Shown piece by piece: positions 3,796 to 54,590 of a DNA stretch of 64,000 bases. The notes under the pieces were generated by a model. That model did not search any database. It saw only the letters and a list, made by a program, of their open reading frames with translations, and was not told the origin of the DNA. The translations under genes and the position numbers were made by a program. Origin of the DNA: Methanobrevibacter thaueri. Lineage in GTDB: Archaea; Methanobacteriota; Methanobacteria; Methanobacteriales; Methanobacteriaceae. The stretch is taken from the NCBI RefSeq assembly GCF_015062915.1, contig NZ_SUTJ01000003.1, forward strand, positions 33,525 to 97,524, written 5' to 3'. Each line of letters begins with the position of its first letter. Within the stretch, counting starts at the first letter, position 1.

Positions 3796-3857
3796 AATAT
3801 CACCTTTTAATATAACTATCTAATTTCAGTTATAAAAGTATTTATTTTTAATTTTGA

Positions 3858-6455: not shown

Positions 6456-6727
6456 TTATTTTCCTCATTCTTTTCAATTGGTTTATGTAAATTTAATTAT
6501 TCAATTATATTAACTTTTTTTGTTCAGTCACATATTTTTGATGAATTTTTTGATACACCTAAACTTTTTATCGAACATATTATGGTCAGTTAAATAAAAT
6601 CGTCTAATAAATTTTACAAAATATTGAATATTTTTTTATTATTTCATGATTTTTCTAGATAAAAATTATTAAATACTTTAATGTTTAAATATTTATACAT
6701 AGGCTATATGCCTAAGGTGGTAATAAA

Positions 6728-10035: not shown

Positions 10036-10106
10036 ACTTTAACCTCCATTAAAATTTACATTTATTAATTATAATATAAAAATATATTTACATAAGGCGT
10101 GATAGT

Positions 10107-16397: not shown

Positions 16398-16465
16398 AAT
16401 GTAATCACTTTTATATTTCTTAATTTAATATATATTCATAATCATATTAAATTTTAGGTGATTTT

Positions 16466-34832: not shown

Positions 34833-34975
34833 ACTGAAATGCACTATTTTCATTGAACTACCTCGACCTTGGATGAGGTCGGGGATTCTTACTTCACGGG
34901 CAGGTACTTTCCCACGAAAGTAGTTTTACCGTGCTATCCCCCCAGTTCCTGAGGTTCATTTTTGTTTTTTCTTGA
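34833..34975 (-). ncRNA. Predicted TnpB omega-RNA (reRNA) scaffold plus about 20-nt flank-derived guide
   Basis: Overlaps the tnpB 3' end. Contains GGAACTGGGGGGATAGC, a TACTTTC/GAAAGTA hairpin and the right-end hairpin, ending in TTCAA. 5' boundary is approximate. Confidence 0.65.
34861..34884 (-). other. IS right-end hairpin
   Basis: CCTCGACCT-TGGATG-AGGTCGGGG on the + strand. Confidence 0.8.
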
Positions 34976-36363: not shown

Positions 36364-39300
36364 ATGCACAAGTTTAATTTATCGTCATCTCAGAAGATGT
36401 TGTTGTTTTCTGAGATAAACAATCCTAACAACGACTCGTTTTATCTCAAATTCAGAAAAGATTATGATTTGAAGAATTTTGATAAGGTGAAACAGGCAAT
36501 TGAAAGTATTTCTAGAAATCATTTAAACTTAAAAATTAAATATGATGAAAAGGGGGATTTCAAGCAATATTACGATGATTTTGATGTAAATGTGGAATCA
36601 TTTGAAGTTGCTGATGAAAATTTGGACCAATTCATTGTCGATTACTTGGATGAACCTTTTGATGATGTTTTCGATTCTCCATTGTATAAGTGGGCAGTAT
36701 TGAAAACAGAATCATCAGCTGTTCTTATAGGTGTTGTACAGCATATCCTATTGGATGGTACTTCCTTATTTTCATTAATTCCTCAGGAGATTGAAAAATA
36801 CCTCCGTGATGGGGATTATGTTTCAGATGAGTATTCTTACGAAACATATGTTAATGATGAAATGGAGTATTTAAAGTCCCCTGAAGCCAGTGAGGATAAA
36901 AAATATTGGTTGAACATTTTAAAAGATTATTCTCAGGATTGGTATTCATTCGACAATTCTGAACTTGGTTATTATGAAGTGCTTTTGGATCAAATCCCTA
37001 ACTTCAAGTATTCCCCATTTGTCACTGCACTTGCACTTGAGTTTTTATATTTTGCAAAATCCAAAAAGAGCAACAAATTGTTTAAGGACATTGTGATGAA
37101 CACTTCCGTCCATGGAAGATACTTCGGACAAGGCGACGCTCTTGGAATGTTTGTAAATACAATTCCATTAAGGCTGACCTATGATGAGGATTTAACCTTT
37201 GATGAGTTGATGGTATATTCAAAATCAGTTTTAAAAGAGGGATTGGCACATGCTAAATTGCAGTTCAGTGAATACGCAACCGATTTGAGAAACGTAAACA
37301 TTGACCCGGACTGCATTTCAATGTTTTCCATAGTGTCCAATTCCACAGACTATGATTCAAAATTCCTGACTTTGCAAAAGGACATCAAGTTCCCATTGCA
37401 CTTCAGGATAAATAAGAACTATTCAGATAAAAACGGCCTGCAATCCATATTTGTGGAATATGACAAATCCTGTTTCAGCCATCGTGAAATTGAATCAATT
37501 GCAAATGGTTTAAGGGATTTGCTAAGGCAGATAATGGATGATTCCTCCAAAAAATGTAAGGATTACACTGTTGAAGTGGTTGATTTCTTCAATGCCGAAA
37601 ACTACTACAACAACATGATGAATTCATTTGACAATCCGACAGCAATCTCTCCAGATATGAGTGGAGACAATGTAATATTCTCTGAACTTTCCAAACCTAT
37701 AGATGATGATAAATTAAAGAACTTGTCAAAACAATATAATCTGTCTAAGGAAAGAATGCTGTTGTCTGTGTTCATGTTTAACTTGACAAAATTCTCATTT
37801 TCAAAAGATATTCTTGTTGCCTACAATAAACAGGCTTGTGGATATCATTTCAACACAGATTTATCTGTTATTGAATACTTGGAGGACTTTAAAAAGTATT
37901 TCAAGTATTATTCAAATTATCCTTTGTTAAACAATAAAAAACTCAATTTTGAAAGTGAAATATTGTTTTTCACTGATGAATACGATGCCAAGGACTATAA
38001 ATTCGTATTTAATTATGAAAGTGGAAAAATCAACATCAGCTATGATGAGTCATTCTATTCAAAAGAACTAATTGAAACATTTCTGGAATCAATGGAAGTC
38101 TTATTGGATAGATTCGAATCAGGCGATAATTTATTGAAAGATATCTCCATAAGAAGACAACTTGAATATGATGAGGACTTCAAGATTGAACTTGCAAATG
38201 AAGGTGTTGTAAACAAGGTCTTTGACATGGCTGTAGCTCAAAACCCTCAAAAAACAATACTCATTGCAGAGGATGGGGAAGTAACATATGGGGAATTGGA
38301 TAAAAAAGCCAATAGGATAGCTAATGCATTAATCAAAAGAGGAGTGAACATTGAAGATAGGGTAATGTTCATGATGAGAAGAAACAGTGACCTGATAGCT
38401 GCAGTTTTAGGTATTGTCAAGGCAGGAGCCGCTTTTATTCCAATTGACCCTAAATATCCTAAAAACAGAATCAATCAAATTCTGGATGACAGTGATTCCA
38501 AATTCGTCATAACAAGTTCAGAAATAGGTTATGATGGAGAAAACAGAATAGATATTGATGATTTGCTTGATGAAATTGATGATTCAAATCCTGAAATCGA
38601 GTTAACGCCGGATAACTTGTGTTTCATGATTTATACTTCAGGTTCAACCGGAAAACCTAAGGGAGTGATGATTACTCATAGGGGTATCACAAATTATGTT
38701 GCAAATGTTGAGGAGAATGTTCCGATTTATGAGCTGAACCATAAGTGTAACAAGTTCATTTCAATTTCAACAGTTTCTTTCATTGTATTTTTGAGAGAAG
38801 TGTTTGGTACAATACTCAATGGATTGCCAGTGGTGTTTGCAAACGATGAAGAATCAATAGATCCATTGAAATTGGTTGAATTGTTCAAAAAAACCGGAGC
38901 TCAAGGATTTGGCTCCACACCAACAAGACTGCTCGAATACATTCAGCTTGAAGAGATTCAGGATGTTGTTAAGGATTGCACTGTGATAATTGTCGGCGGT
39001 GAAGGATTCCCTCCTATATTATATGAAAGGCTGTCAAAATACACTGATGCAGACATCTACAACTCTTACGGCCCAACAGAGGTCACCATTGCATCACACT
39101 ACAAGCTGATTGACTCATCTCAAGTCACCGCAGGATGGAAGATGCTCAATGTGGTTGATAAGATAATGGATATCGATGGAAATCAACTTCCTCCATATGT
39201 CATGGGCGAAATCTATGTTGGTGGTGCAGGAATTGCAAGAGGATATCTGAATAATGAGGAGCAAACCCAAAAGGTCTTTTTAACACTTAATGACATTCCA

Positions 39301-42300
39301 TATTACAATACTGGAGATTTGGGTAAAAAAGATGCTAACGGCGAGCTATATGTTCATGGGAGAAATGATACTCAAATCAAGCTTAGGGGCTTAAGAATCG
39401 AATTGTCTGAAATTGAAGGGGCAATTGCCAATTATGATGGCATTTCCCTTTCAAAGGTCGTTGTCAAAAAAGTCAATTCAGTGGAGCATTTATGCGCCTA
39501 CTTTACAGCCGTAACCGATATAGATATTGATGATTTAAAGCAACATTTAGTTGATTCAATTCCTGAGTATATGGTTCCATCTTATTTCACACAACTTGAC
39601 GAGTTTCCAAAAACTCCAAATGGCAAGACAGACTTTAAAAACTTGCCTGACCCTGAAATTGATGTTGATGATTTTATTAAACCAAGAAATGAGATTGAAC
39701 AGGAGTTATTCAATATTGTATCCGAGCTCTTGAACATTGAGGAATTTGGTGTAAACACTGATTTATTCAGCATAGGATTGACTTCATTGTCTGTAATCAA
39801 ACTGACATCTGCAATTTACAATAACTTGAATGCACAGTTAAACGTTACTGAAATACTTAATTATAAGACAATTGAAAGAATCGCTTCTGAAATTAAGATA
39901 GATGATGCATCATCAAGTGATGTGCAGGAATTATATCCTTTAACCTCAAATCAACTTGGAGTTTACTTTGACTGCATTAAAGATCCTGAAAACACTGCAT
40001 ATAACCTTCCAAAGAAAATGGAATTTAGTGAAGGCATTGATGCAGATAAACTCAAATTATCAATTATTGAATCCATTGAAAATCATCCATATTTAAAAAC
40101 AAGAATTGTAATGGAAAACGGTGAAGTTTACCAACAAAGAAGGGATAACCTGAAAGTTGATGATTTAATAGAAATGGTTGATGATGCTAATGTGGACGAG
40201 TTTGTAAAGCCGTTCAAGCTTGATGAGGGGCCATTGTTCCGCTTCAAGATAGTTGGAAATTCAATGTTGCTTGCTGATTTCCACCACATTATCGTTGATG
40301 GAACTTCATTAAACATTCTATTTGATGAGATAGCTAAAATCTATGATGGAAAGGATTATGAGATTGAGGAGATTGATGGATTTGAATATTCATTGAATGA
40401 AAAGAAAACAGAACAATCCAGCTTGTATGAAGAGGCTAAACTATTTTTCTCCAATAAGGTCAAGGAATTTGATGATGCCACATTGATTCCGCAGGACATC
40501 AATGGTGATGAGTCTGAGGGTAGTGCCGCAATGGATGATATCTTCTTGGGTAAGGAATCCATAGATGAGTTCTGCGCAAAATCCGGCATATCCCAAAACA
40601 ACTTGTTCCTGGCTGCGACCTCATTCGTCATAAACAAGTTTGTTTATAATCGTGAAATATTGATTGCAACAATCACTAACGGCAGATTCAATCCAAACCA
40701 GCAAAAGACATTGGCAATGATGGTTAAGACATTGCCTTTATCATTGAAATTGAATTCAGATTCAAACATTAAGGAATACCTTGACTACATTAACGGCGAG
40801 TGGTTAAACGTATTGGGTTACTCATCATATCCTCTAACAGAAATCTCAAACGAGTTCGACATCACTCCTGAGATATTGTACGCATACCACGGCAAAATCA
40901 TTGAGGATATTGAAATCGGAGGAATGAATGTCGAAAGGCAGTCAATAGATTATGAAGGATTGAAATTCAAGATAAATATTAATGTTGTCGATGTCGGAGA
41001 CCAATATAGGATTTTCTGCGAATACAATGACCAATTATACTCTAAAACTTTAATTGACACATTCCTTAACTGTATTAGGATTGTCCTGAATAAATTCCAA
41101 AGTTTCGATGAAAAAACATTGATGAAGGATATTTCAATAATCGAAAATGATGACTGGGGAGTTGACGATTTAGAGTATGATGAAATTCCAGAGGAAAGAT
41201 TAAACAAGATATTTGAAAATCAGGTGGAAATGCATCCTGACAGGGTTGTCTTATATGCCACCGACGGGGAATTCACATATGAGCAATTGAATGAAAAGGC
41301 CAATAGGATTGCACATGGCCTTATCAAAAGGGGTGTAGGTCCTGAGGACAGGATAATGTTTATTCTTAATAGGGACAGTAACACAATAGCATCAATTTTC
41401 GGTATCCTGAAATCAGGTGCTGCATTTATTCCAGTGGACTCAGAATATCCTTCTGAAAGAATTGAGCATGTATTGACAGACAGTGAGTCAAAATACATAA
41501 TTGTGGATGATGTAATTGAGAAAAAATCCATAGATCTGTCCCAATATGAGGATAACTTATTGGATGTCCATGAACTTCTAAAAGAGGAAGACACTTCAAA
41601 CCCCGACCCTGACGTTCATGCCAATAACATGGCTTATCTCATCTACACTTCAGGTTCCACAGGACTTCCAAAAGGAGTAATTCTTGAACATGGAAACATT
41701 GCAAACTTCGTTTATCCTGACCCTAGAAATGTATGTACCTATGAACTGGTGCATAATCTTGAAAAAGAGGATTATAAGGTATTGTCCACTACAACAGTTG
41801 CTTTCGATGTGTTCCAGCAGGAGATTATGGGATCCCTATTGAACGGGGTGCCGATGGTATTTGCCAATGACACTGAATACAAGGACCCAATCGAAATGAT
41901 GAGTCTGATTCACAGGACAGGCGCTAATGTCTACATTGCAACCCCATCACGTTTGCTGCAATATCTGGAAATCGAAGCGATGCAGGAGACAATGTACGGA
42001 TTCAAGGTATACATTCACGCTGGAGAACCATTCTCAGCCAGATTATATGAATTGCTTTCACAAAACTCCAATGGAAAACTATTCAACATGTACGGGCCAA
42101 CAGAGACTACAGTCTACTGTAACGGTCAGCTGCTTGAAAGTTCAGACATTCACATTGGAAAAGAGCTTTTCAACGTACATGAAATGGTTATGGATTTCGA
42201 TTCAAACCCATTGCCTCCAAATGTCATTGGGGAAATGTACATTGCAGGAAAGGGTGTTTCAAGAGAGTACCTGAACCGTCCTGAGAAAAATGAGGAGTCA

Positions 42301-44169
42301 TATGAAATAATTAATGGAATCCGATTCTATCACTCAGGGGACTTTGTTAAAGTCACTGAAGATGGGAATTATTATGTGTTCGGAAGAATGGATAACCAAA
42401 TCAAGCTTAGAGGCTTAAGGATTGAAATAGGTGAGATTGAAGTTGGTCTTTCAAACTTCCCTGGAATCAAATCCGTTGCGGTTGTCGTTAAAAAGATTAA
42501 GGGCAATGATCACTTATGTGCATATTTCACTGTTCATGATGATTACAAGGATGAAAACCGTGAGGAAAATGGATATTCAATTGATATTGATGAGTTAAAG
42601 GCTTCACTTGCTGAAAAATTGGTATATTACATGGTTCCAACAGTCTACATGGAACTTGATGAAATGCCGCAAACCGTAAATGGCAAAACAGACTTGAGGA
42701 ACTTGCCTGAACCGGTTCTAATCACTGAATATGTTGCTCCTGAAAATGAAATTGAAGCATTCTTTGCAAATCTCTTTGCAGAAATTTTAGGACTTGATGA
42801 GGTAAGCGCCACCGATAACTTCTTTGAAATTGGTGGAACTTCACTTCTAGTTACTAAAATTACCATGGAAGCTATAAACAGAAATTATAACCTGAATTAT
42901 GGGGACGTATTCTCAAATCCAACTCCAAGGGCATTGTCAGACTTTATCCTATCTGATGAGTCATTGGAGAAGAAATCAGAAATGGCTTATGACTATTCAC
43001 AAATCAACAGCCTGCTTGAGAAAAACAATCTTGAAACAATCATTAATGGTGAAATCCAAGACAGTGTAGGTAATGTGCTGTTGACTGGTGCCACAGGATT
43101 TTTAGGAATACATGTATTGCGTGAATTACTTGAAAATGAGGATGGTGAAATTTACTGTTTCATCAGATCCAATAAGGTTCTAAGCGGTGCTGAAAGATTG
43201 AAATCACTTCTCTTCTATTATTTCTCAGATGAGTACAACGAGGCATTTGATGAAAGGCTGCACATTATCGAGGGAGACATCACAAACTTTGAGGACTTTG
43301 AAAAGCTTGTGCATGAAAAAATAGATACTGTCTTCAACTGTGCCGCCAACGTAAAACACTTCTCATCAGGAACAGATATTGAAGATATCAACCTTGGGGG
43401 TGTAGTCAATGGACTCAAGTTTGCTAAAATGAAGAATGCGAAATATGTTCAGATTTCAACCTACAGTATTGCAGGTGAAAGTATTGACAATTATCCTCCG
43501 GTTGACGTTAAATTTACGGAAAATGATCTATTCATTGGTCAGGCAGTGGATAACCAATATCTAAACAGTAAATTCCTTGCGGAACGTGCCGTTTTGGAAG
43601 CTGCCGTTAATGATGATTTGGATGTTAAAATCATGCGTGTAGGTAACCTGATGGCCAGAAGTTCAGACAGTGAATTCCAAATCAACTTCGTAACAAACGG
43701 TTTCATCAATCGTCTTAAGGCGTTCGTGACAATAGGTAAAATGCCATATTCCATGCTTATGAATCCTGTTGAATTCTCACCGATTGACATTACAGCTAAG
43801 GCCATTGTGGGATTGTCCAAGACTCCTAAGGAATGCACCATTTTCCATCCATATGATTATCACAATATCAGCTTCGGAGACATAATTGATATAATTAGGC
43901 CGTTAGGATTGACAATTGATCCTGCTGAAGATGATGATTATCAAAAAGCATTGGATGAGGCTCTTGCAGACAAAACAAAACAAGAGGGAGTTTCCGGTTT
44001 AATCACTTCTATTGGTTCGGGTAAGGTTAAAAAGATATGGCTTCCTGTAGACAATTCATACACAATCCAGGCATTATATCGTTTGGGAATTACCTGGCCA
44101 TTCCTTTCAGAGGAATACGTTTATAATTTTGTAAAATATTTGGATGAACTTGATTTCTTTAGTGTTTAG
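36364..44169 (+). CDS. Non-ribosomal peptide synthetase, C-(half C)-A-T-C-A-T-R
   Basis: C1 QHILLDG (36739), A1 YTSGSTGKPKG, T1 GLTSL (Ser 39784), C2 HHIIVDG (40282), A2 YTSGSTGLPKG, T2 GGTSL (Ser 42841), reductase TGATGFLG (43084) with YLNSK. Confidence 0.95.
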   Translation: MHKFNLSSSQKMLLFSEINNPNNDSFYLKFRKDYDLKNFDKVKQAIESISRNHLNLKIKYDEKGDFKQYYDDFDVNVESFEVADENLDQFIVDYLDEPFDDVFDSPLYKWAVLKTESSAVLIGVVQHILLDGTSLFSLIPQEIEKYLRDGDYVSDEYSYETYVNDEMEYLKSPEASEDKKYWLNILKDYSQDWYSFDNSELGYYEVLLDQIPNFKYSPFVTALALEFLYFAKSKKSNKLFKDIVMNTSVHGRYFGQGDALGMFVNTIPLRLTYDEDLTFDELMVYSKSVLKEGLAHAKLQFSEYATDLRNVNIDPDCISMFSIVSNSTDYDSKFLTLQKDIKFPLHFRINKNYSDKNGLQSIFVEYDKSCFSHREIESIANGLRDLLRQIMDDSSKKCKDYTVEVVDFFNAENYYNNMMNSFDNPTAISPDMSGDNVIFSELSKPIDDDKLKNLSKQYNLSKERMLLSVFMFNLTKFSFSKDILVAYNKQACGYHFNTDLSVIEYLEDFKKYFKYYSNYPLLNNKKLNFESEILFFTDEYDAKDYKFVFNYESGKINISYDESFYSKELIETFLESMEVLLDRFESGDNLLKDISIRRQLEYDEDFKIELANEGVVNKVFDMAVAQNPQKTILIAEDGEVTYGELDKKANRIANALIKRGVNIEDRVMFMMRRNSDLIAAVLGIVKAGAAFIPIDPKYPKNRINQILDDSDSKFVITSSEIGYDGENRIDIDDLLDEIDDSNPEIELTPDNLCFMIYTSGSTGKPKGVMITHRGITNYVANVEENVPIYELNHKCNKFISISTVSFIVFLREVFGTILNGLPVVFANDEESIDPLKLVELFKKTGAQGFGSTPTRLLEYIQLEEIQDVVKDCTVIIVGGEGFPPILYERLSKYTDADIYNSYGPTEVTIASHYKLIDSSQVTAGWKMLNVVDKIMDIDGNQLPPYVMGEIYVGGAGIARGYLNNEEQTQKVFLTLNDIPYYNTGDLGKKDANGELYVHGRNDTQIKLRGLRIELSEIEGAIANYDGISLSKVVVKKVNSVEHLCAYFTAVTDIDIDDLKQHLVDSIPEYMVPSYFTQLDEFPKTPNGKTDFKNLPDPEIDVDDFIKPRNEIEQELFNIVSELLNIEEFGVNTDLFSIGLTSLSVIKLTSAIYNNLNAQLNVTEILNYKTIERIASEIKIDDASSSDVQELYPLTSNQLGVYFDCIKDPENTAYNLPKKMEFSEGIDADKLKLSIIESIENHPYLKTRIVMENGEVYQQRRDNLKVDDLIEMVDDANVDEFVKPFKLDEGPLFRFKIVGNSMLLADFHHIIVDGTSLNILFDEIAKIYDGKDYEIEEIDGFEYSLNEKKTEQSSLYEEAKLFFSNKVKEFDDATLIPQDINGDESEGSAAMDDIFLGKESIDEFCAKSGISQNNLFLAATSFVINKFVYNREILIATITNGRFNPNQQKTLAMMVKTLPLSLKLNSDSNIKEYLDYINGEWLNVLGYSSYPLTEISNEFDITPEILYAYHGKIIEDIEIGGMNVERQSIDYEGLKFKININVVDVGDQYRIFCEYNDQLYSKTLIDTFLNCIRIVLNKFQSFDEKTLMKDISIIENDDWGVDDLEYDEIPEERLNKIFENQVEMHPDRVVLYATDGEFTYEQLNEKANRIAHGLIKRGVGPEDRIMFILNRDSNTIASIFGILKSGAAFIPVDSEYPSERIEHVLTDSESKYIIVDDVIEKKSIDLSQYEDNLLDVHELLKEEDTSNPDPDVHANNMAYLIYTSGSTGLPKGVILEHGNIANFVYPDPRNVCTYELVHNLEKEDYKVLSTTTVAFDVFQQEIMGSLLNGVPMVFANDTEYKDPIEMMSLIHRTGANVYIATPSRLLQYLEIEAMQETMYGFKVYIHAGEPFSARLYELLSQNSNGKLFNMYGPTETTVYCNGQLLESSDIHIGKELFNVHEMVMDFDSNPLPPNVIGEMYIAGKGVSREYLNRPEKNEESYEIINGIRFYHSGDFVKVTEDGNYYVFGRMDNQIKLRGLRIEIGEIEVGLSNFPGIKSVAVVVKKIKGNDHLCAYFTVHDDYKDENREENGYSIDIDELKASLAEKLVYYMVPTVYMELDEMPQTVNGKTDLRNLPEPVLITEYVAPENEIEAFFANLFAEILGLDEVSATDNFFEIGGTSLLVTKITMEAINRNYNLNYGDVFSNPTPRALSDFILSDESLEKKSEMAYDYSQINSLLEKNNLETIINGEIQDSVGNVLLTGATGFLGIHVLRELLENEDGEIYCFIRSNKVLSGAERLKSLLFYYFSDEYNEAFDERLHIIEGDITNFEDFEKLVHEKIDTVFNCAANVKHFSSGTDIEDINLGGVVNGLKFAKMKNAKYVQISTYSIAGESIDNYPPVDVKFTENDLFIGQAVDNQYLNSKFLAERAVLEAAVNDDLDVKIMRVGNLMARSSDSEFQINFVTNGFINRLKAFVTIGKMPYSMLMNPVEFSPIDITAKAIVGLSKTPKECTIFHPYDYHNISFGDIIDIIRPLGLTIDPAEDDDYQKALDEALADKTKQEGVSGLITSIGSGKVKKIWLPVDNSYTIQALYRLGITWPFLSEEYVYNFVKYLDELDFFSV

Positions 44170-44180: not shown

Positions 44181-45908
44181 ATGCATGAACGTAATTATGA
44201 GTTATTGAGAAGTAAGTTTACTGAGTTTTTCCTGCCTACATTGTTCACTTCCATGGCAGGAAACATCTGTCTTTTTGTAGATGGATTGATTGTGAGTTTC
44301 TTGCTGGGTGCAGCAAACCTTTCGGCTATTCAGATTGTTGCTCCTTTAATCACCTTTGTCAATCTCATTTACTGGATGATCGGATTGGGGGGCAGTGTTC
44401 TCTGCTCTGTTGCAAAGGCCGAATTCGATGATGAAAAGAGCAATAGCTACTTTTCGGTGGCAATTATATCTCTTATAACCCTAGGCATAGTGATAGCAGT
44501 TGTAGGTCTTATATTTTCAGGCCCAATTGCCCAGTTGTTATGTGCTTCACAGCCTGAATTGATTCCGGATGTCACTAGCTATTTCATTTTATTGGTTATT
44601 GGAATGCCATTTTTATGTTATATGATGAGCTTATCATACTTCATAAGGGCCGATGGAATTCCTACACTGCCATTCAGGGCGATATTGTTGGCTAATATTA
44701 TTAACATAGTCTTTGATATCATATATCTCCAATTATTTAATATGGGAATAGGAGGAGCAGCATTGTCTACCTCAACAGGGTACTTAACAGGTTCAATATT
44801 AATTTCATTTTACTTCTACAAGTCCGAACGAACACTACAATTTATAAAATTGAAAGTGACTTCATTTCTGTCTTATCTTAGGCAGATTGTCACTTCTGGA
44901 TTCTCATCCTCATCAACCCAATTATACTTGACATTAAAGCTATTGATTATAAACTCATTGATTGGAATATATGTTGGAAACGCAGGTCTTGTAGCATTTG
45001 GTATTTGCTATAACAGTCTGTTCATATTGTACATCTTTTTAATCGGGACAGCTCAGACAATGTCTCCAATCGTGTCAGTTTACTATAAGGAAGAGGATTA
45101 TTCCGGAGTGAATTACATTATTCGCAGGTCGTTGAAAATAGTCTTTGCTTCAAGTCTTGCATTGGCGGTTTTATTCATAGTCTATCCTCAATCATTGTTG
45201 ATGCTGTACAGTGTCAAGGACCCGTCTTATGTTCTTGTTGTCTTAAACGCAGTAAGGATATTTGCAATAAGCTATGTTGGAACTGCAATAACATTCCTAT
45301 ACACTTTCTATTCTCAAGCGATACAGAAAAATCAATTGTCAACAATCATTTCATTGCTTGAGGGATTAATATTTCCGATTGGATTTGCAACAGTATTGTC
45401 CTTTGTGTTTGGAGGAAATGGAATTTGGATTTCATTTGCATTGGCTGAACTCTTTACAATACTTTTCATATTTGCATATTCAAGGCACTTAAGCAGGAAA
45501 ACCGATGGGGAGTACACCGGATTTTTCATCAACAAGCACAATGACGACACAAAGGTATTTGAGTATACCATAAGAGGCAATATTGACGAGGCTGTGGAAT
45601 TATCACAAGAAGTTCAAAATTATCTAGAAGGAAACAAATCCGCAACGGTGGTCAGCATGGCCATTGAGGAAATGCTTGTAAATATCATCAACACCAATGA
45701 TGAGGTCGGCACAATTGATGTTATCGTCAGAAACAATGAGGACAATATTCTGATTTCAGTCAAGGATACAGGAATCGATTTCAATCCTGTTGTTGAAAAT
45801 GAGAATTTGGAATTTGACAACATAAGTGTCTTAAATAAAATTGCGGATAAAATCGATTATTCCAGAGTTTTGGGATTGAACAGCACTGTAATCACAATTA
45901 AAAATTAA
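44181..45908 (+). CDS. MATE efflux transporter fused to a C-terminal RsbW-like (HATPase_c) domain
   Basis: About 12 TM MATE body (VDGLIVSFLLG, GIGGAALST). Tail EEMLVNII...VKDTGIDFNP. Starts 11 nt after the NRPS stop. Confidence 0.88.
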   Translation: MHERNYELLRSKFTEFFLPTLFTSMAGNICLFVDGLIVSFLLGAANLSAIQIVAPLITFVNLIYWMIGLGGSVLCSVAKAEFDDEKSNSYFSVAIISLITLGIVIAVVGLIFSGPIAQLLCASQPELIPDVTSYFILLVIGMPFLCYMMSLSYFIRADGIPTLPFRAILLANIINIVFDIIYLQLFNMGIGGAALSTSTGYLTGSILISFYFYKSERTLQFIKLKVTSFLSYLRQIVTSGFSSSSTQLYLTLKLLIINSLIGIYVGNAGLVAFGICYNSLFILYIFLIGTAQTMSPIVSVYYKEEDYSGVNYIIRRSLKIVFASSLALAVLFIVYPQSLLMLYSVKDPSYVLVVLNAVRIFAISYVGTAITFLYTFYSQAIQKNQLSTIISLLEGLIFPIGFATVLSFVFGGNGIWISFALAELFTILFIFAYSRHLSRKTDGEYTGFFINKHNDDTKVFEYTIRGNIDEAVELSQEVQNYLEGNKSATVVSMAIEEMLVNIINTNDEVGTIDVIVRNNEDNILISVKDTGIDFNPVVENENLEFDNISVLNKIADKIDYSRVLGLNSTVITIKN

Positions 45909-46010
45909 GTGATATTTAAGGATGATGTTAACACATTATCCAATTCTTTTTTTTCGATTAAATTAATTATTTATATTTTCATTAACATAATTTTCATTGA
46001 GTTAATTAAC

Positions 46011-46868
46011 ATGTCTGGTCAAAAATCATTTATTGCGAAAATAGAGGAAAGCATTTTAAAGGCAACCAAACCAAAATATATGGACTTTTCAGATGAGGTA
46101 AGTCACTTTTTATCCGATAGGCAAAATGATCCTAAGCCTCCAAGTGGCCTTTTCAAGAGTTTTGATTTCAATGGTATGGAAGTCTTCAAAATAGGTGATG
46201 AAACTTGCAAAAACACAATACTGTATCTACATGGGGGAGCATACGTTAATGAAATAAATTATCAGCATCTATTATATTGCTTTTTGCTTTCACGAAAATT
46301 AGATGTCCAAGTGTTGTTGCCAGTTTACCCACTCGCTCCTTTACATAAAGCGAAGGAAACTTTTGACCTGCTTCGAGAATTTTATGAAACCCTAACCTCA
46401 AGGGATAATTTGATACTTATGGGCGATTCCGCAGGAGGAGGACTTGTTTTTTCATTCTGTCAGTATCTCAATACAATCGGTCTGGCGCAACCCGACAAGA
46501 TCATAACATTTTCCCCATGGATTGACATTTCAATGAGCAACGGGCCGTATGACAATGAAAACGACCCGATTTTAGGTGAAATCGGCCTGAGGGAAATCGG
46601 GAAATCATGGGCAGGTGACTGGGATAGCAAAGACTATCGCGTAAGCGCCACATATGGAGATAACAGCGGATTGCCGAGAACCCTTATTTTTGCCGGAACA
46701 AATGAGATATTCTACAAGGACATCAAGATGTATGTTGAAAAGCTAAAAAGAGATGATGTTGATGTCAAGTTCATAGAAGGCGATGGACTATTCCATATCT
46801 ATCCGTTGTTCCCGATGCCTGAGGCAAAAAGCGCATTTAAAGAAATAAAAAAAGAAATAATTAAATGA
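46011..46868 (+). CDS. HSL-family alpha/beta hydrolase (esterase)
   Basis: YLHGGAY oxyanion motif, GDSAGG, NEIF and LFHIYP. Start moved to ATG 46011. Confidence 0.88.
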   Translation: MSGQKSFIAKIEESILKATKPKYMDFSDEVSHFLSDRQNDPKPPSGLFKSFDFNGMEVFKIGDETCKNTILYLHGGAYVNEINYQHLLYCFLLSRKLDVQVLLPVYPLAPLHKAKETFDLLREFYETLTSRDNLILMGDSAGGGLVFSFCQYLNTIGLAQPDKIITFSPWIDISMSNGPYDNENDPILGEIGLREIGKSWAGDWDSKDYRVSATYGDNSGLPRTLIFAGTNEIFYKDIKMYVEKLKRDDVDVKFIEGDGLFHIYPLFPMPEAKSAFKEIKKEIIK

Positions 46869-47762: not shown

Positions 47763-47917
47763 GATTATAGATTTTTATTTTTTATCATATATCTTTTGCA
47801 TTTTGAAGTTTGGTCTATTTCTGAAATATTATACTTTAAATAATATTGTTTTCACATTGTAAAATTGATTTAAAAGATAACCAAGTCTTTATATTAACTA
47901 AACGATAATAGTATTTT

Positions 47918-48844
47918 ATGAATCTAAAAATAATTGATAATTTAGTTGTATTCATTGACAATATTGTTCCTGAAAGGTATTTGTCCAGGTTTCAGGAATT
48001 TTTGTTGAGTGGAGCAATTTTTACAGATGCAAGTAAAGTTTTAGCCATTCTCATAATTTTCTTATTATTGTCAGAAAGCGCATTTGCAGCAATGTTAATG
48101 TCCCTAAACCTTCCAGTCTCTGTTCTGATATTGCCACTTTTTGTCATTCCTGGACTTTTCACATATGTCATTGTCCAACAGGAGAGGAGAGCTCAAGAAA
48201 TAGAGCGAACCGCTCCAGACTTTCTAAGGCAGCTTTCAAGCATGCTGCAGGTAGGACTCAGCTTTGAAAATGCAATGGAGGACATGTCGCAATACGGCGA
48301 AGGCCCGCTATACGACGAGATGAGGAGAACGATCATAGAAATTCGAATGGGGCGAAATTTCGATGAGGCATGGCGTGCAATGAGCAAGCGATTGAAATCA
48401 AGGGAACTGGAGAGGATTTTTGGAATAATTCTTGATGGGCGCAAAAGCGGTTCAAGCATTTCAAAAGTATTGTCTGATGTTTCGGATGACTTGAGGGAGC
48501 TGATGGCTCTTAAAAGGGAGAGAAGATCATCGGTCATGATGTCAGTCATGTTTCTTCTGATTTCAGCGGTTATAGCTACTCCATTTTCTATAGGCATGGT
48601 AAGCGTATATTCGGGATTCATGCAAAGCTATGGGATGGATTCACAAATCATTTTCACAGCCCCGATTGCAGGGGAAATGTACTTGATTATCCATTCTATT
48701 CTAGTGGGCTTTATCATCAGCATAATCATGTATGGGGATGTTAAGAAGGGCGTAAAATATTCCCTGCCTCTGGCTGTGGGGTCATTTGGAATATTCTATT
48801 TCATATCAACATTTGGCGGAACCTTGCTTATGGGGGGATTCTAA
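47918..48844 (+). CDS. Type II secretion F-domain (TadC-like) platform protein
   Basis: PDFLRQLSSMLQVGLSFENAM, GPLYDEMRR and SGSSISKVL; 3 C-terminal TMs. Confidence 0.85.
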   Translation: MNLKIIDNLVVFIDNIVPERYLSRFQEFLLSGAIFTDASKVLAILIIFLLLSESAFAAMLMSLNLPVSVLILPLFVIPGLFTYVIVQQERRAQEIERTAPDFLRQLSSMLQVGLSFENAMEDMSQYGEGPLYDEMRRTIIEIRMGRNFDEAWRAMSKRLKSRELERIFGIILDGRKSGSSISKVLSDVSDDLRELMALKRERRSSVMMSVMFLLISAVIATPFSIGMVSVYSGFMQSYGMDSQIIFTAPIAGEMYLIIHSILVGFIISIIMYGDVKKGVKYSLPLAVGSFGIFYFISTFGGTLLMGGF

Positions 48845-49026
48845 TGGATAATAAGGGTCAGGCATCAGCGGAATTCATATTGTTGTTTGGTGGAATAATT
48901 GTTGTTGTTCTGCTTGCTATTCATCTATACAATAAGTATATGAATGATTTGAGTGAGGAGATTGCATCAAAGGAAGTCAGCGAATTCAACAATGAATTGA
49001 CTAACCTTGGACAGTATTTCAAATAG
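48844..49026 (+). CDS. Class III signal peptide protein (minimal type IV pilin-like)
   Basis: KG|QASAEF with Glu at +5, then a hydrophobic helix; TAATG coupling to the upstream gene. Confidence 0.85.
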   Translation: MDNKGQASAEFILLFGGIIVVVLLAIHLYNKYMNDLSEEIASKEVSEFNNELTNLGQYFK

Positions 49027-49088
49027 TTAATGTTAAATATGTTCAACATTAGAGATAATTATGCTGAGCGCTAAAAAAATTTTAAAGG

Positions 49089-51180: not shown

Positions 51181-51813
51181 TTAAAACAAGTCTTCAATAT
51201 TATATTCAACCGCTTTTTTGACATTATGCTTGGAGCAAGCTGCCAATTTATAGTTTTCAACATCAAATAAGCTGAATTTCAGATTATTTTCATTGCCTTT
51301 TAATGTGATTTCATCCCCGATCAGTATTTCAAACTGATCCAGTTCCAGATTGAATCCCAAACCAGTGTATTTCATATAGCTTTCCTTTAAAACCCAATAT
51401 CTAAAAAATTCGTTTGAAGGATTGTGGGATTTCATAATGCTTTCATATTCTGAGTTGAAGAAGTAGTGTTTGGCTATGTCCAAATCGATTTCCCCATCAA
51501 CATATTCAACATCAACGCCGACTTCCATATCGGATATTGCACAAGCTACCATTTTACGTGAATGGCTCAAATTGAAATGAATGTCTTCATGGCTTGATAT
51601 GTATGCCTTGCCGTATTTTCCGGTTTCGAAAGTGGGGTTTGTGATGTTTTCCTCTCTAAGCAAGGTATTCAAAAGAAGATATGCTCCGGCGCTCAGTTTC
51701 TTGTCCTTTTCGAACCTATAAAAATCCACTTTTGATTTTCTATGTTCCGGGAGCAATTCGTATGACCTTGTCAAATCCAAATCGTCGACATTGCAGTAAG
51801 CTATTTTAATCAT
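51181..51813 (-). CDS. Sfp-type 4'-phosphopantetheinyl transferase
   Basis: YGKAY, FNLSHS, VGVDVE and FFRYWVLKESYMKYTGLG. Confidence 0.93.
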   Translation of the reverse strand: MIKIAYCNVDDLDLTRSYELLPEHRKSKVDFYRFEKDKKLSAGAYLLLNTLLREENITNPTFETGKYGKAYISSHEDIHFNLSHSRKMVACAISDMEVGVDVEYVDGEIDLDIAKHYFFNSEYESIMKSHNPSNEFFRYWVLKESYMKYTGLGFNLELDQFEILIGDEITLKGNENNLKFSLFDVENYKLAACSKHNVKKAVEYNIEDLF

Positions 51814-51846
51814 TTTTTAATCTTCAATGTTAAAATTAGGTATTGT

Positions 51847-52224
51847 TTATTCCACTTTCTTGGTGATCTTGAGATGGTTTTCGTCGGCAATCCTATCATA
51901 TTCAATATCATCTGAAAGCTCTTTTGTCAGATGAATTCCCAAACCGCCTACCTCAGCATCTTCAATGCTTTCCGGCATTTTAGGGTCTTCATTTAAAAGA
52001 GGATTGAATTCAACTCCATCATCAATAAACTCAAGTGTCAATATGGAGTTTTCAAAACTAGAGTTGACCCTGATTGAATCGGTCTTTGAATAGTTGACAA
52101 TGTTTACAAAGACCTCTTCCAGAATCAGATCAACCTGAAAATCCTGTTTTCCAATAATTTCATTGATGAAATCATTCAATTTGTATAATTCCTCAATTTG
52201 AGGAGCCAATTCCAATGAATTCAT
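51847..52224 (-). CDS. RsbW/SpoIIAB-like anti-sigma-factor Ser kinase (HATPase_c)
   Basis: N-box EEVFVNIVNY, G1 DDGVEFNP, G2 GGLGI; ATGA overlap with the STAS gene. Confidence 0.88.
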   Translation of the reverse strand: MNSLELAPQIEELYKLNDFINEIIGKQDFQVDLILEEVFVNIVNYSKTDSIRVNSSFENSILTLEFIDDGVEFNPLLNEDPKMPESIEDAEVGGLGIHLTKELSDDIEYDRIADENHLKITKKVE

Positions 52225-52520
52225 TCTATCTTTAATATTTTATCAAATCCAGACATCCTGAAAATTTCATTAATGGTTTCGTTCACGTTTTTGATAACCA
52301 TTGGGGTGTCTGTGGATTTTAATTTTTTCTGGGTTGCTATCAGCACTCTCAAACCGGCACTGGAAATGTATTCCACTTTCTCAAAATCAATTACTAATGA
52401 GTCAAATTTTCCAAGCTCTTCATTAATTTCCTTTTCCAAGTCCTGTGAAGTCAAGGTATCAATTCTACCCTCTACTGATAATGTTAAATCCTTGTTATCA
52501 TAATCTTTTAAAATATTCAT
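52221..52520 (-). CDS. STAS-domain anti-sigma-factor antagonist (RsbV/SpoIIAA-like)
   Basis: VEGRIDT, IDFEKVEYISSAGLRVL with the phospho-acceptor Ser, and FRMSGF. Confidence 0.92.
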   Translation of the reverse strand: MNILKDYDNKDLTLSVEGRIDTLTSQDLEKEINEELGKFDSLVIDFEKVEYISSAGLRVLIATQKKLKSTDTPMVIKNVNETINEIFRMSGFDKILKIE

Positions 52521-52652
52521 AATATCACTGGTTTAATATATTTTTATGTAAGTTTAAATATTTTGTTGAAATTTCCTGTAGATATTCCTTTCGGTGTTGA
52601 ACACTATCTCTGAATCAAAAAAATAAGTGGAAAAAGAGATAATTGATTAAAG

Positions 52653-53696
52653 TTATCTCATGTATAAAATAAACTTACCGAATTTAGGGATTCTATAAAT
52701 GATTGCGGCCGCCACATAACTGAAGAAAATCAGTAAAACCCATAAAATCAGAGCCTTGACAGGTTCTGTGAATGGCAATCCAACAATCAAAGGTAATAAT
52801 GGGAGTCTGAATAGGTTATGTATTAAAAATACTGCAAATGAGTATTTTGACAATACTTGGACTCCACTATAGAATCTGACGCTTCCTCTTCTGGAACACA
52901 GTTCGAACAGTGCGAATGATCCTGTCAGGATGAATGGGAACTCATACCATAGGAAGAAATTGTATCCTCTGATGAATGCATAGTACTGGAAGACTACACA
53001 AATTAAAAATGACACGAGTGCAAGCAATCTGAATTTATTGGTTGAATACTTCTTGAAAACTCCTTTCTTGACCAAGTATCCCAGTATAATGTAAATTCCA
53101 TATACTCCTCCACTGAATCCTAAACTGAATTGGATTGAAATGCCTTTAATCCCCTGCATGTCAAACAGTAATGTGATGAATGGAATCGCAAATGCCAAAA
53201 GTGAAAATACGATTGTGGCCTGATTGATTGTTTCCGGTTTGAAATTATCCAATGCGCTTGCAACAAACGGCATGGAAAGATACATTCCAATAATCATCGG
53301 CATATACCACATGTGGCTGAAGAATAGGTTTCCAGCTTCGGTAAAGTTGACGGACTGGCTTCCAACAGCAACAAACTGCAGGCTAACTGCATAAATCACG
53401 GTCCAAAGGATAGTGACTATAATCAGTCCCTTACAGTTTTTGCTCCAGAACTTGCGGACACGCTCGTCATTATAGCTTCTGTCAAGTAACAGATAACCTG
53501 TAATCATTAAAAAGAACGGAACCCCAATACGTCCAATAAACAGTGAAATGAATTGAAAAACTCTTGAAAATAATGTATAGTGCATTATTGCATCAGATGA
53601 TATTATATAAATACCATCTGTTGCATGAATGTACAGTACTGTCAGGATAGCTATTGCACGTACAAGATCAATCCATTCGACTCTATTTTTACTCAT
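52653..53696 (-). CDS. Acyltransferase-3 family membrane O-acyltransferase
   Basis: RVEWIDLVRAIAILTVLYIH, GVPFFLMITGY, HMWYM and YSFAVFLIH; about 10 TMs. Confidence 0.88.
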   Translation of the reverse strand: MSKNRVEWIDLVRAIAILTVLYIHATDGIYIISSDAIMHYTLFSRVFQFISLFIGRIGVPFFLMITGYLLLDRSYNDERVRKFWSKNCKGLIIVTILWTVIYAVSLQFVAVGSQSVNFTEAGNLFFSHMWYMPMIIGMYLSMPFVASALDNFKPETINQATIVFSLLAFAIPFITLLFDMQGIKGISIQFSLGFSGGVYGIYIILGYLVKKGVFKKYSTNKFRLLALVSFLICVVFQYYAFIRGYNFFLWYEFPFILTGSFALFELCSRRGSVRFYSGVQVLSKYSFAVFLIHNLFRLPLLPLIVGLPFTEPVKALILWVLLIFFSYVAAAIIYRIPKFGKFILYMR

Positions 53697-53711: not shown

Positions 53712-54521
53712 TTATTTTCTACGTATAATTGGTACAAATATGGCAATCATTGCCACTAAAACTAATGCTATAGGTATTCCTGTCTTTTTCATGTCCTGTT
53801 TAGTGTTGTTTTCAGGTTTGGTTTTATTGTAATGTTTAACGATTTTTGTTTTCACTGTTTCTTTTGTTTTGGTTGTTTTTTTAGTTTTAGTATTTTTATC
53901 TTTGCTGGTATCATCCTTGTCATCAGTTGATGTTGAGTTTTCTGTGGAATTGTCAGTAGAATCGTCGGTTGAATTGTCTGTTGAATCGTCTGTGGAGTTG
54001 TCATCATCTGTTGAATTAGATTGTGCATCTTCAGTTGGTGTTGTTTCATCCTCAGTGGCTGTCTGATTGTCATTGTCTGATTCATCTTCAGTCAAATTAT
54101 CTTCATTGTCTGAAGAAGGGATTTCAGTATTCAATACATCTTCTACAGTTGTTTCATTATCAATGCCTAAAATATCTCCATCAAGAGGATTCTCTTTTAT
54201 GATGAAACCTTTCTTTGCATCACCGATAATATGAAAAGAATAATCTTTATTGTCATTCACTTTAATTGAATATTTTCCGTCATCTTCCTGATTCTTGAAT
54301 ACTGCTGACCAAGAATTGGATTTGCTTAATACTTTGGTGTCAACAACCTTGTTGTCCTTTAAAAGATTTACTGTTACCTTATCTGGAAGGTTTACTATGT
54401 CATCCCATGTAAGTTTTACAGAGATGTCTTGAGTTTTAATATCATCCGCTGCAGAAACGAAGCTAACGCATGCTGTTAGAAAAACTGCAATAAACAATAT
54501 TGTAAGTAGCTTTCTGTTCAT
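53712..54521 (-). CDS. Secreted Cna-B-type surface protein with acidic S/T stalk and C-terminal sorting-signal-like tail
   Basis: Signal peptide; VKLTWDD..PDKVTVNL..NSWSAVF; DxST repeats; MKKTG-hydrophobic-RRK end. Start at ATG 54521. Confidence 0.82.
   Translation of the reverse strand: MNRKLLTILFIAVFLTACVSFVSAADDIKTQDISVKLTWDDIVNLPDKVTVNLLKDNKVVDTKVLSKSNSWSAVFKNQEDDGKYSIKVNDNKDYSFHIIGDAKKGFIIKENPLDGDILGIDNETTVEDVLNTEIPSSDNEDNLTEDESDNDNQTATEDETTPTEDAQSNSTDDDNSTDDSTDNSTDDSTDNSTENSTSTDDKDDTSKDKNTKTKKTTKTKETVKTKIVKHYNKTKPENNTKQDMKKTGIPIALVLVAMIAIFVPIIRRK
53930..54020 (-). repeat. Degenerate 12-nt tandem repeat encoding D(D/N)ST units
   Basis: GAC AAC TCC ACA / GAC GAT TCA ACA / GAC AAT TCA ACC / GAC GAT TCT ACT / GAC AAT TCC ACA. 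Confidence 0.75.
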
Positions 54522-54590
54522 TAATTGCACCTCTAAAATAATTAGTTAATAATTATATTATTTTTTGATATATAATTATTTAACTAATGT

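Follow-up and report, generated by a model that had tools for sequence, protein, structure and literature searches.

A bacterial-type STAS–kinase pair in a nonribosomal peptide synthetase cluster of the archaeon Methanobrevibacter thaueri, with an RsbW-like exporter domain as a candidate target

Partner switches are a classic bacterial means of controlling sigma factors, as in the RsbV-RsbW-RsbU/P (sigma-B) and SpoIIAA-SpoIIAB-SpoIIE (sigma-F) systems of Bacillus subtilis. To our knowledge, archaea lack sigma-70-family factors, and none is expected in the organism considered here, which raises the question of what a partner switch does in a sigma-less organism. The same STAS/kinase/PP2C logic is linked to non-sigma outputs in Bordetella (BtrU/V/W, type III secretion), where BtrU and BtrW take part in regulating the secretion process, and in Vibrio fischeri (SypE/SypA, biofilm), where the target of SypA is unknown (PMC8256260). 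Both systems are bacterial and act on targets yet to be found; in neither is there a transporter with a kinase-like domain. A transporter joined to one half of a STAS/anti-sigma-kinase pair is found in the SLC26/SulP anion transporters, which carry a fused cytoplasmic STAS domain (PMC8256260). In the control of secondary metabolism, a parallel is the single-domain HATPase SspH of Streptomyces, a regulator of antibiotic biosynthesis that requires conserved N and D residues; unlike the proteins described below, SspH acts globally and via transcription in a sigma-bearing bacterium, is not part of a cluster, and lacks an operon-encoded STAS partner (PMC9137472).

The same gene set as the one analyzed here has been reported in the same genus. 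In Methanobrevibacter ruminantium M1, the genes mru0512-mru0516 encode an acyltransferase, an anti-sigma-factor antagonist, a phosphopantetheinyl transferase (PPTase), a serine phosphatase (mru0515), and an anti-sigma Ser/Thr kinase (Leahy et al. 2010, PMC2812497), and a MatE gene lies beside each nonribosomal peptide synthetase (NRPS). The idea that this gene set regulates the NRPS was already published for M1 in 2010; that paper offers no mechanism, makes no mention of an RsbW-like domain on MatE, and contains no survey of further genomes (PMC2812497). Neither what methanogen NRPS clusters produce nor how they are regulated is known (PMC5467289, PMC8024701). Our literature search found no paper on archaeal partner switching, and a full-text search found no description of a MATE-HATPase_c_2 fusion.

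We analyzed a stretch of 64,000 nt (hereafter, the window) from Methanobrevibacter thaueri (GCF_015062915.1, NZ_SUTJ01000003.1, positions 33,525-97,524 of the forward strand; Table 1). An earlier interpretation made from the sequence alone (the sequence-only reading) had described, on the minus strand, the gene order STAS, RsbW-type kinase, Sfp-type PPTase, with an ATGA overlap between the STAS stop and the kinase start and a 33-nt gap between the kinase and the PPTase; the ORF coordinates and the sequence agree on every point. Its statement that similar gene sets have been noted in Methanobrevibacter NRPS genomes is matched by the M1 cluster described in 2010 (PMC2812497). The gene set is, then, not new: the window contains a PP2C-less form of the M1-type set, whereas M1 retains its serine phosphatase.

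Table 1. Features of the NRPS region in the window (window positions)
Feature	Positions	Strand	Basis or remark
Dimodular NRPS with terminal reductase, C-A-T-C-A-T-R, 2601 aa	36364..44169	+	Pfam
MatE exporter, 575 aa	44181..45908	+	Pfam MatE, 2 stretches, 9e-25; directly downstream of the NRPS
Soluble C-terminal RsbW-like pseudokinase domain of MatE (predicted)	45519..45905	+	BLASTP to the kinase, 4e-6
Abhydrolase_3 esterase/lipase-type hydrolase	45909..46868	+	Pfam 3e-29
Sfp-type 4'-phosphopantetheinyl transferase, 210 aa	51181..51813	-	Pfam ACPS 6e-15 and AASDHPPT_N
33-nt spacer where orthologous operons hold a 1.9-kb membrane PP2C gene	51814..51846	-	Junction comparison, operon maps
RsbW/SpoIIAB-type GHKL serine kinase (HATPase_c_2), 125 aa	51847..52224	-	Pfam 6e-14
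STAS-domain-only protein, anti-sigma-antagonist type, 99 aa	52221..52520	-	Pfam STAS 4e-17
Promoter-like BRE/TATA element AACAAAATATTTAAAC	52552..52567	-	~32-47 nt upstream of the STAS ATG
Acyl_transf_3 membrane acyltransferase, mru0512 equivalent	52653..53696	-	Pfam 1.5e-33

The STAS protein matches SpoIIAA, TM1442, RsfB, and RsbV in the PDB (5e-8 to 7e-5) and has the architecture of partner-switch antagonists, that is, a single STAS domain with a conserved phosphorylatable serine in the DS(S/T/A)G loop. The predicted phospho-acceptor is Ser54 (YISSAGL), which occupies the alignment position of Ser58, the phosphorylated residue of SpoIIAA, and of its counterpart serine in TM1442; Y51, S53, S54, G56, and L57 are invariant among 77 orthologues. 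The product of the adjoining gene is a HATPase_c_2 kinase in which the N box (E36/E37..N41), the G1 box (D68-x-G70-x-x-F-N-P), and the G2 box (G93-G-L-G96) are invariant across the family. A single-sequence search of the PDB with this protein yielded only a weak histidine-kinase match; B. subtilis RsbW (6m36) was reached via the family profile, in which the motifs match residue by residue. The AF2 model of the kinase (pLDDT 87.4) has UsfX, SpoIIAB, and RsbW as its best Foldseek matches (TM 0.65-0.73). The alignments and invariant motifs agree with the sequence-only reading, which had considered the acceptor serine and the kinase boxes intact, and by these marks of homology the archaeon encodes a genuine and intact STAS/RsbW pair. 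The acceptor serine, the N/G1/G2 motifs, and the kinase fold are all shared with the B. subtilis switches. The differences are a sigma-less host, a kinase of only 125 aa where those of B. subtilis span 146-160 aa, the placement of the module within an NRPS/PPTase/MatE cluster, and, in the window, the deletion of the phosphatase. We also considered the STAS protein as a substrate of phosphopantetheinylation and dropped this idea because the STAS fold is not the four-helix bundle of carrier proteins.

The PPTase shows the two ACPS-like halves, the length (~210-240 aa), and the signatures G-x-D-x-E (GVDVE at 99) and W-x-x-K-E-[AS]-x-x-K (WVLKESYMK at 140) of Sfp-type (group II) enzymes. Its substrate is the NRPS, which has T-domain cores at residues 1134 (FSIGLTSL) and 2153 (FEIGGTSL) and the domain order of reductase-terminated dimodular synthetases (dipeptide-aldehyde/pyrazinone type).

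All close homologues come from Methanobrevibacter or Methanosphaera; among the 80 best genome matches, the closest kinase is 71% identical. We surveyed 79 species loci from these two genera, with sub-counts over 63, 68, or 69 loci, the 63 being those with 3 kb on both sides. In the usual layout, as seen in the operon maps of relatives, MatE and the NRPS run divergently from an operon of STAS, kinase, membrane PP2C, and PPTase genes with overlapping stops and starts. The kinase gene is accompanied by STAS in 64 of 79 loci, by PP2C in 62 of 69, by the PPTase in 51 of 69, and by a directly divergent NRPS in 33 of 68. The tie between the module and NRPS genes that the sequence-only reading proposed holds across species: an NRPS and/or a PPTase is found within 10 kb in 59 of the 63 loci, and neither in 4. 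An NRPS is present with the PPTase nowhere in the locus in 9 of 63, and a PPTase-associated switch lacks an NRPS-MatE pair within 10 kb in 25 of 63. Genomes with multiple clusters, namely, SGB_7172 (L033, L081, L089) and RGIG2411 (L034, L082), encode as many switches as NRPS-MatE clusters but only one PPTase, which sits in a STAS-less module (L082, L089); thus, the switch tracks the NRPS-MatE clusters and not the PPTase. About 10 modules have no adjacent STAS gene, L036 contains NRPS-MatE remnants, and the divergent, AT-rich lineage L094 keeps STAS-kinase-PPTase with no NRPS nearby.

The named relatives above 44% identity all belong to Methanobacteriaceae. The nearest non-methanogen relative examined, P0134 (L093; 42% identity), belongs to an ordinary kinase-STAS pair without an NRPS, in a bacterial-type motility context; with these two observations, a bacterial origin of the specific cassette was set aside. 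On comparative grounds, the three genes are very probably this genome's copy of a conserved NRPS-cluster cassette of Methanobacteriaceae. In the window, the cassette lies 7 kb from the NRPS and no longer adjoins it, having been moved by a rearrangement in this lineage.

The phosphatase encoded between the kinase and the PPTase in most of the loci is a ~626-aa, multi-TM, SpoIIE-type PP2C with 7 hydrophobic segments within its first 315 residues, which is similar to SpoIIE in having a multi-TM N-terminal part; a fused PP2C-kinase protein also exists (P0125). A tblastn search of the 64-kb window with an orthologous SpoIIE-type phosphatase found no PP2C (best E=0.43), in accord with the sequence-only reading. 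The absence is, however, not a design feature of the module but a deletion from the usual cassette. The last bases of the spacer, GAAGATTAAAAAATG, resemble the 3' end of the PP2C gene in L013, and the cassette of the window is, to judge from this junction and the operon maps, a lineage-specific derivative that lost the PP2C gene. Such deletions occurred at least 4 times, with different junctions, and the linkage to the PPTase was kept in every case. In the PP2C-less clades, the catalytic and acceptor residues remain invariant, and purifying selection still acts on STAS, kinase, and PPTase, with dN/dS values (0.06-0.20) that equal those of PP2C-bearing pairs.

A second RsbW homologue resides on the exporter. 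The transporter proper consists of the two MatE repeats of the MATE family, and its hydrophobic part ends near residue 432; beyond it extends a 130-aa soluble tail that falls outside the family definition. The tail gives HATPase_c_2 matches in Pfam (2.7e-4 and 1.4e-6), aligns with the kinase in hhalign (probability 96.8%, E 2.6e-10), and yields an AF2 model (pLDDT 80) for which the best Foldseek matches, UsfX, RsbW, and SpoIIAB (TM about 0.7), are all anti-sigma kinases; the RsbW-like nature of the tail, already suspected in the sequence-only reading, is borne out. The tail retains the N box (IEEMLVNI) and G1 (KDTGIDFNP), and a deletion of ~10 residues has eliminated the G2 box (GGLGI) along with part of the ATP lid, such that the glycine loop and lid of an intact Bergerat fold are missing. 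Lacking the G2 box, the tail cannot be a normal kinase and probably behaves like a pseudokinase or docking domain. A C-terminal RsbW-like domain without the G2 box/ATP lid is present on all 19 complete NRPS-linked MatE proteins and on none of 3 other MatE genes. This distribution, together with the homology, makes the tail a credible target, as the sequence-only reading had suggested among other candidates, and it is the sole candidate third partner with a relevant domain.

We propose the following scheme. The kinase would phosphorylate the STAS protein on Ser54 using ATP; in the complete form of the cassette, the membrane PP2C would undo this phosphorylation upon a membrane or envelope signal. 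Depending on the phosphorylation state, STAS, the kinase, or both would or would not dock on the RsbW-like tail that the cluster's MatE exposes to the cytoplasm; through this docking, export of the peptide, and perhaps also its synthesis, would be coupled to the signal. The PPTase, under this scheme, would be in the operon so that priming of the carrier domains is co-expressed with the switch, without being a target of the latter. In the phosphatase-less form, the pair might work as an ATP/ADP-dependent kinase-STAS equilibrium acting on newly made STAS, might rely on a phosphatase encoded elsewhere, or might be locked as STAS-P. For the explanation as a whole, a cluster-specific, sigma-less partner switch aimed at the MatE pseudokinase tail and not at the PPTase, we see an even balance of arguments. 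That the tail is the partner of the switch is a tentative suggestion when taken by itself, and the specific version in which phospho-controlled docking of STAS and/or the kinase gates peptide export is possible but somewhat doubtful. In M1 treated with lauric acid, which is reported to target mainly cell-surface and transmembrane proteins, the PPTase gene mru_0514, both MatE genes, and the NRPS gene mru_0351 rise together (PMC5816558), which we count in favor of this explanation. Against it count the 25 of 63 loci where the switch has a PPTase but no nearby NRPS-MatE pair, L094, where the gene set fits a PPTase-centered function equally well, and the ~10 STAS-less modules. The association of the tail with NRPS clusters could also reflect mere shared inheritance of the cluster. 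In SpoIIAB, the region of the ATP lid is part of the surface on which the STAS protein docks; the MatE tail lacks this region, and therefore STAS may not bind it in the way SpoIIAA binds SpoIIAB.

If the MatE tail is the output, control of a transporter would for the first time be shown for a partner switch, and archaea would have their first mechanistically understood example, a mirror image of the STAS-bearing SLC26 transporters: here, the arrangement is inverted, with the MATE-family transporter bearing the kinase-like half and the STAS protein being free. The recurrent phosphatase-less forms would then represent a stripped-down, two-protein, ATP/ADP-sensing version. In any case, the kinase-like domain on a MATE exporter is a concrete, testable target, and natural 'knock-outs' exist in the lineages from which the phosphatase, the STAS gene, or the NRPS has disappeared. 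These archaea are abundant in the rumen and gut, and an understanding of how the clusters are switched could help to find their products and ecological role.

Alternatively, the output might be transcriptional: an archaeal transcription factor, either TFB/TBP or a regulator encoded outside the cluster, would be sequestered or activated by the kinase or by unphosphorylated STAS, and the promoters of the STAS operon and of the divergent NRPS-MatE genes would thereby be switched in a manner functionally analogous to anti-sigma control. We regard this as unlikely, although cluster-situated regulators typically show such a divergent layout with very little intergenic DNA (<100 nt in L002), the joint rise of the M1 transcripts for PPTase, MatE, and NRPS under lauric acid would be expected (PMC5816558), and a STAS-only protein itself serves as the output, with targets unknown, in V. 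fischeri and R. capsulatus (PMC8256260). In an alignment of 65 loci, most orthologous loci keep the promoter-like element ahead of STAS, regardless of which gene lies upstream. Nevertheless, this element resembles an ordinary BRE/TATA and was not found upstream of the window's NRPS in a motif search, which gave 4 matches in the window against 0.68 expected, the STAS-upstream copy alone having a single mismatch; a shared dedicated operator is, for these reasons, unsupported. Furthermore, the operon maps of relatives show no DNA-binding gene conserved in the cassette or its neighborhood, and the RsbW-like domain on MatE would be left unexplained.

Direct control of the PPTase, which the kinase would bind and inhibit, or phosphorylate, until relieved by STAS, so that conversion of carriers from apo to holo is gated, appears improbable. 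The PPTase gene is the last of the operon in 51 of 69 loci, usually with overlapping codons, and the retained linkage after PP2C loss, the switches that accompany a PPTase with no nearby NRPS, and the gene content of L094 all point the same way. Yet the 9 NRPS-linked modules without a PPTase in the locus, the 4 loci with neither gene, and the genomes with 2-3 switches and one PPTase, located in a STAS-less module, weaken this option of the sequence-only reading, and a once-per-genome gene can occupy any cluster operon without being regulated by it. Action of STAS on the NRPS, at its carrier (T) or other domains, on the model of the STAS-ACP complex reportedly formed by E. coli YchM/DauA, is very improbable: the NRPS has two canonical T domains, but neither sequence nor comparative evidence favors the idea, and it does not account for the kinase-like MatE tail. 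We assign an equally low probability to an inert relic, that is, a horizontally transferred module that came along on a bacterial NRPS island and lies idle in the sigma-less host, with the phosphatase loss marking the onset of decay. A bacterial origin of the NRPS genes was suggested by Leahy et al. (PMC2812497), PP2C, STAS, and the NRPS-MatE pair have been lost recurrently, and P0134 is part of an ordinary kinase-STAS pair in a bacterial-type setting; however, the module persists in 79 or more species-level genomes, its catalytic and acceptor residues unchanged throughout, the ORFs are intact, the promoter is conserved, and selection remains purifying even within the PP2C-less clades.

Several further genes recur around the cassette. 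The acyltransferase gene, the stop of which is followed by T-runs, often lies upstream of it (L005-L011, L019, L021, L026, L027, L037, L040, L062, L067), and the Abhydrolase_3 gene, recurrent in the neighborhood, adjoins it in many loci. A small ORF of M. ruminantium M1, mru_0070, matches the MatE tail. Expression of the region is plausible: it is present in six runs labelled metatranscriptomic, as assembled contigs of 6-10 kb that span genes on both strands.

Three closely packed ORFs on the minus strand of 51181-52520 encode a STAS protein, an RsbW-like kinase and a PPTase carrying the Sfp motifs GVDVE and WVLKESYMK. Both the ORFs and the raw sequence confirm the gene order initially read from the DNA: the STAS stop codon overlaps the kinase start codon in ATGA, and a 33-nt spacer precedes the PPTase; the three genes are probably co-transcribed. 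The STAS protein matches the solved structures of SpoIIAA, TM1442, RsfB and RsbV, and its Ser54 (YISSAG) aligns with the phospho-acceptor Ser58 of SpoIIAA; Tyr51, Ser53, Ser54, Gly56 and Leu57 are invariant in 77/77 sequences. In the kinase family alignment, E36/E37 and N41 of the N box, D68, G70 and F73-N74-P75 of G1, and G93-G94-L95-G96 of G2 are likewise invariant, and in the family profile alignment these motifs match B. subtilis RsbW residue for residue. The AlphaFold model of the kinase (pLDDT 87.4) has UsfX, SpoIIAB and RsbW as its nearest solved folds, besides LvrC, a HATPase-containing response regulator. The alignments thus bear out the claim that the phospho-acceptor serine and the kinase boxes are intact. 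The STAS and kinase components of a partner switch are accordingly present; the phosphatase is missing from the window, as the sequence-only reading had stated (tblastn with the orthologous phosphatase detected no PP2C in the whole of it), and there is no known third partner.

Coordinates of features in the window and in homologous loci (L numbers)
Sequence	Feature	Position	Strand	Basis or remark
Window	STAS protein, 99 aa	52520..52221	-	ORF; Pfam STAS 4e-17
Window	HATPase_c_2 kinase, 125 aa	52224..51847	-	ORF; Pfam HATPase_c_2 6e-14
Window	PPTase, 210 aa	51813..51181	-	ORF; Pfam ACPS 6e-15 and AASDHPPT_N
Window	Promoter-like element (AACAAAATATTTAAAA)	52552-52567		
Window	Acyl_transf_3 gene	53696..52653	-	Upstream of STAS, same strand
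Window	NRPS, 2601 aa, C-A-T-C-A-T-R	36364..44169	+	Pfam domains
Window	MatE, 575 aa	44181..45908	+	Pfam
Window	IS605-family OrfB/TnpB (Cas12f-like TNB domain)	34894-36102	-	Directly upstream of NRPS
Window	Contig-depth drop over T2SSF/class III signal peptide genes	47700-49075		
Window	272-aa low-complexity protein	53712-54530	-	No real Pfam match
Window	Two TMEM175-like genes, 190 and 193 aa	54591-55728	-	Overlapping, in tandem
L052	In-frame PP2C stump	10375-10617		Codon 9 joined to C-terminal part of PP2C domain
L008	PP2C deletion scar, first codons kept	10379-10515		
L041	PP2C deletion scar, first codons kept	10379-10417		
L036	79-aa MatE-tail fragment	1407-1646		Adjoins cassette
L027	3.5-kb unassigned gap	3441-7016		Abhydrolase_3 to STAS
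L094	STAS-kinase-PPTase	9678-11146		GCA_964399835.1, GC about 24%
L002	YcaO-TfuA pair	15616-17473		Equivalents in L005, L008

The kinase has 266 close homologs, practically all from Methanobrevibacter; a scan in which each species was represented by a single genome gave 262 relatives, the best 80 of which all belong to Methanobrevibacter, Methanosphaera or further Methanobacteriaceae. Gene maps drawn from precomputed Pfam matches, and others from our own annotation of 92 loci, show a usual layout in which an NRPS gene followed by MatE diverges from an operon of STAS, kinase, a SpoIIE-type PP2C phosphatase (~626 aa) and PPTase, with consecutive cassette genes overlapping by a few bases. PP2C adjoins the kinase in 62/69 species loci, PPTase lies downstream in 51/69, STAS upstream in 64/79, and an NRPS is directly divergent in 33/68. 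The phosphatase has seven hydrophobic segments within its first 315 residues; in P0125, a metagenomic protein of 767 aa, a multi-TM membrane PP2C is fused to a C-terminal kinase of the 125-aa type that is 54% identical to the window kinase. In the 63 loci whose flanks extend for at least 3 kb in both directions, NRPS and PPTase both lie within 10 kb in 25, NRPS alone in 9, PPTase alone in 25 and neither in 4. Since archaeal genomes seldom carry either kind of gene (PMC8024701), the linkage goes far beyond chance, and the connection of the cassette to the NRPS system, as originally proposed, is strong. About ten kinase-PP2C modules lack an adjacent STAS gene (L015, L038, L046, L060, L071, L082, L085, L088, L089, L092); several of these adjoin an NRPS, and in the two multi-module genomes examined, the PPTase lies in the STAS-less module (L082, L089).

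The window, its identical copy L001, the 72% and 66% clades (L008-L012), and L016, L041, L057, L063, L071 and L092 all lack the phosphatase gene between kinase and PPTase. Remnants persist at several junctions: L052 retains a stump, in L008 and L041 the first codons alone survive, and in the window all that is left is a stretch similar to the 3' end of PP2C ahead of the PPTase start. The PP2C-less loci are dispersed on a neighbor-joining tree of the kinase, a short protein, computed without support values, and the PP2C-bearing L013 falls between the window and the L008-L012 clade. We conclude that there were at least four independent losses and that the window cassette is a phosphatase-deleted derivative, in which the absence noted in the initial interpretation is a secondary loss. 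The dN/dS values for STAS, kinase and PPTase are 0.20, 0.14 and 0.10 (L008 vs L011) and 0.06, 0.14 and 0.12 (L057 vs L063) in pairs lacking PP2C, compared to 0.03, 0.14 and 0.07 (L005 vs L026) and 0.04, 0.13 and 0.15 (L036 vs L039) in pairs possessing it. Selection on the three genes is thus not relaxed in the PP2C-less pairs; these low values, together with the invariant STAS residues, indicate that the STAS-kinase pair is maintained as a functional unit with no phosphatase gene beside it.

The proposed RsbW-like tail of the MATE exporter is supported by several lines of evidence. The last ~130 residues of MatE are soluble and share 26% identity with the kinase (BLASTP 4e-6); Pfam HATPase_c_2 matches are borderline or below threshold, and hhalign against the kinase family gives a probability of 96.8% (E 2.6e-10, 113 columns). 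The AlphaFold model (pLDDT 80) has the beta-alpha-alpha-beta-beta-alpha-beta-beta order of the kinase, and its 17 best Foldseek matches are all anti-sigma kinases (UsfX, RsbW, SpoIIAB; TM about 0.7). The tail retains the N box (IEEMLVNI) and G1 (KDTGIDFNP), and a deletion of ~10 residues has cost it the GGLGI G2 loop and some of the ATP lid, so that it should be a pseudokinase or docking domain. It is present on 19/19 complete MatE genes preceded by an NRPS and on 0/3 located elsewhere in the loci, and a word-indexed search with the tail matched solely Methanobrevibacter and Methanosphaera proteins. In M. ruminantium M1, its C-terminal half is annotated apart as a 78-aa hypothetical protein, mru_0070 (P0348), a split ORF whose number comes next after that of the MatE gene mru0069; among the metagenomic matches, too, many are short separate ORFs, a sign that the tail is probably often split or mis-called. 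The fragment in L036 is a remnant of NRPS-MatE loss, and the gap in L027 is another.

Which protein the switch acts on can be approached through genomes with several NRPS-MatE clusters, where each cluster has a switch and there is a single PPTase: in SGB_7172, it lies in L089 and is lacking from L033 and L081, and in RGIG2411, in L082 and not in L034. Judged by this distribution, the switch would serve the NRPS-MatE cluster, and the PPTase, one of the targets suggested at the outset, is probably not the target but a passenger of one operon. Regulation of the PPTase nevertheless keeps some weight, given the 25 loci with switch and PPTase but no nearby NRPS and the divergent L094, which retains STAS-kinase-PPTase alone. 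The L094 cassette, with no PP2C or NRPS within 10 kb, is flanked by PAS/HisKA_2 kinases, Tex and GluRS.

Within the cluster, MatE alone carries a domain of a kind for which pairing with STAS proteins or dimerization with RsbW-type kinases is known, and its tail is therefore tentatively favored as the partner of the switch. A transcriptional output, which seems rather unlikely, would fit the divergent arrangement, the promoter-like element 32-50 nt upstream of STAS that is conserved in most loci, and the joint increase of PPTase, both MatE genes and one NRPS in M1 under lauric acid (PMC5816558); against it, the cassette neighborhood has no conserved DNA-binding gene, and the motif was not found upstream of the NRPS in the window.

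The initial reading mentioned similar sets in Methanobrevibacter NRPS genomes, and these genes have indeed been reported before: mru0512-0516 of M1 were described and suggested to sense the environment and regulate NRPS (PMC2812497). According to later papers, neither how methanogen NRPSs are regulated nor what they produce is known (PMC5467289; PMC8024701). Mechanistically, the cassette resembles the Rsb and SpoIIA switches as well as two non-sigma switches, Btr, which regulates a secretion process, and Syp, in which STAS is the output (PMC8256260). The MATE-pseudokinase fusion, of which we found no description in the literature searched, mirrors the SLC26-STAS fusion. To this the present analysis adds the cassette architecture across the family, the repeated loss of the phosphatase while selection continues and, as a concrete candidate for the target, the RsbW-like domain fused to the exporter.

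In the window, the NRPS-MatE group, accompanied by an Abhydrolase_3 gene on the plus strand, lies 7 kb from the cassette, separated by genes for a CAAX protease, a T2SSF/class III signal peptide pair, an SBF transporter and a DUF4013 protein. The OrfB/TnpB gene occupies the exact place of the STAS operon in relatives, and a transposon-associated rearrangement may have split the cassette from the NRPS. Many relatives have a YcaO-TfuA pair downstream of the cassette, at a distance of a few kb; it is not at that position in the window, presumably because of the rearrangement. Contigs from metatranscriptomic-labelled runs cover the STAS-kinase-PPTase region wholly, and in 2/4 such runs their depth falls from ~40-100 to 0-8 across the T2SSF/class III signal peptide genes, a pattern consistent with real RNA and cassette expression in faecal samples. 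Farther upstream, the low-complexity protein has a signal-like segment at its N-terminus and a hydrophobic anchor at its C-terminus, together with a long Asp/Ser/Thr/Asn-rich stretch in which DDSTDNST is repeated, and the TMEM175-like pair adjoins an aldehyde dehydrogenase gene, an arrangement conserved in relatives.
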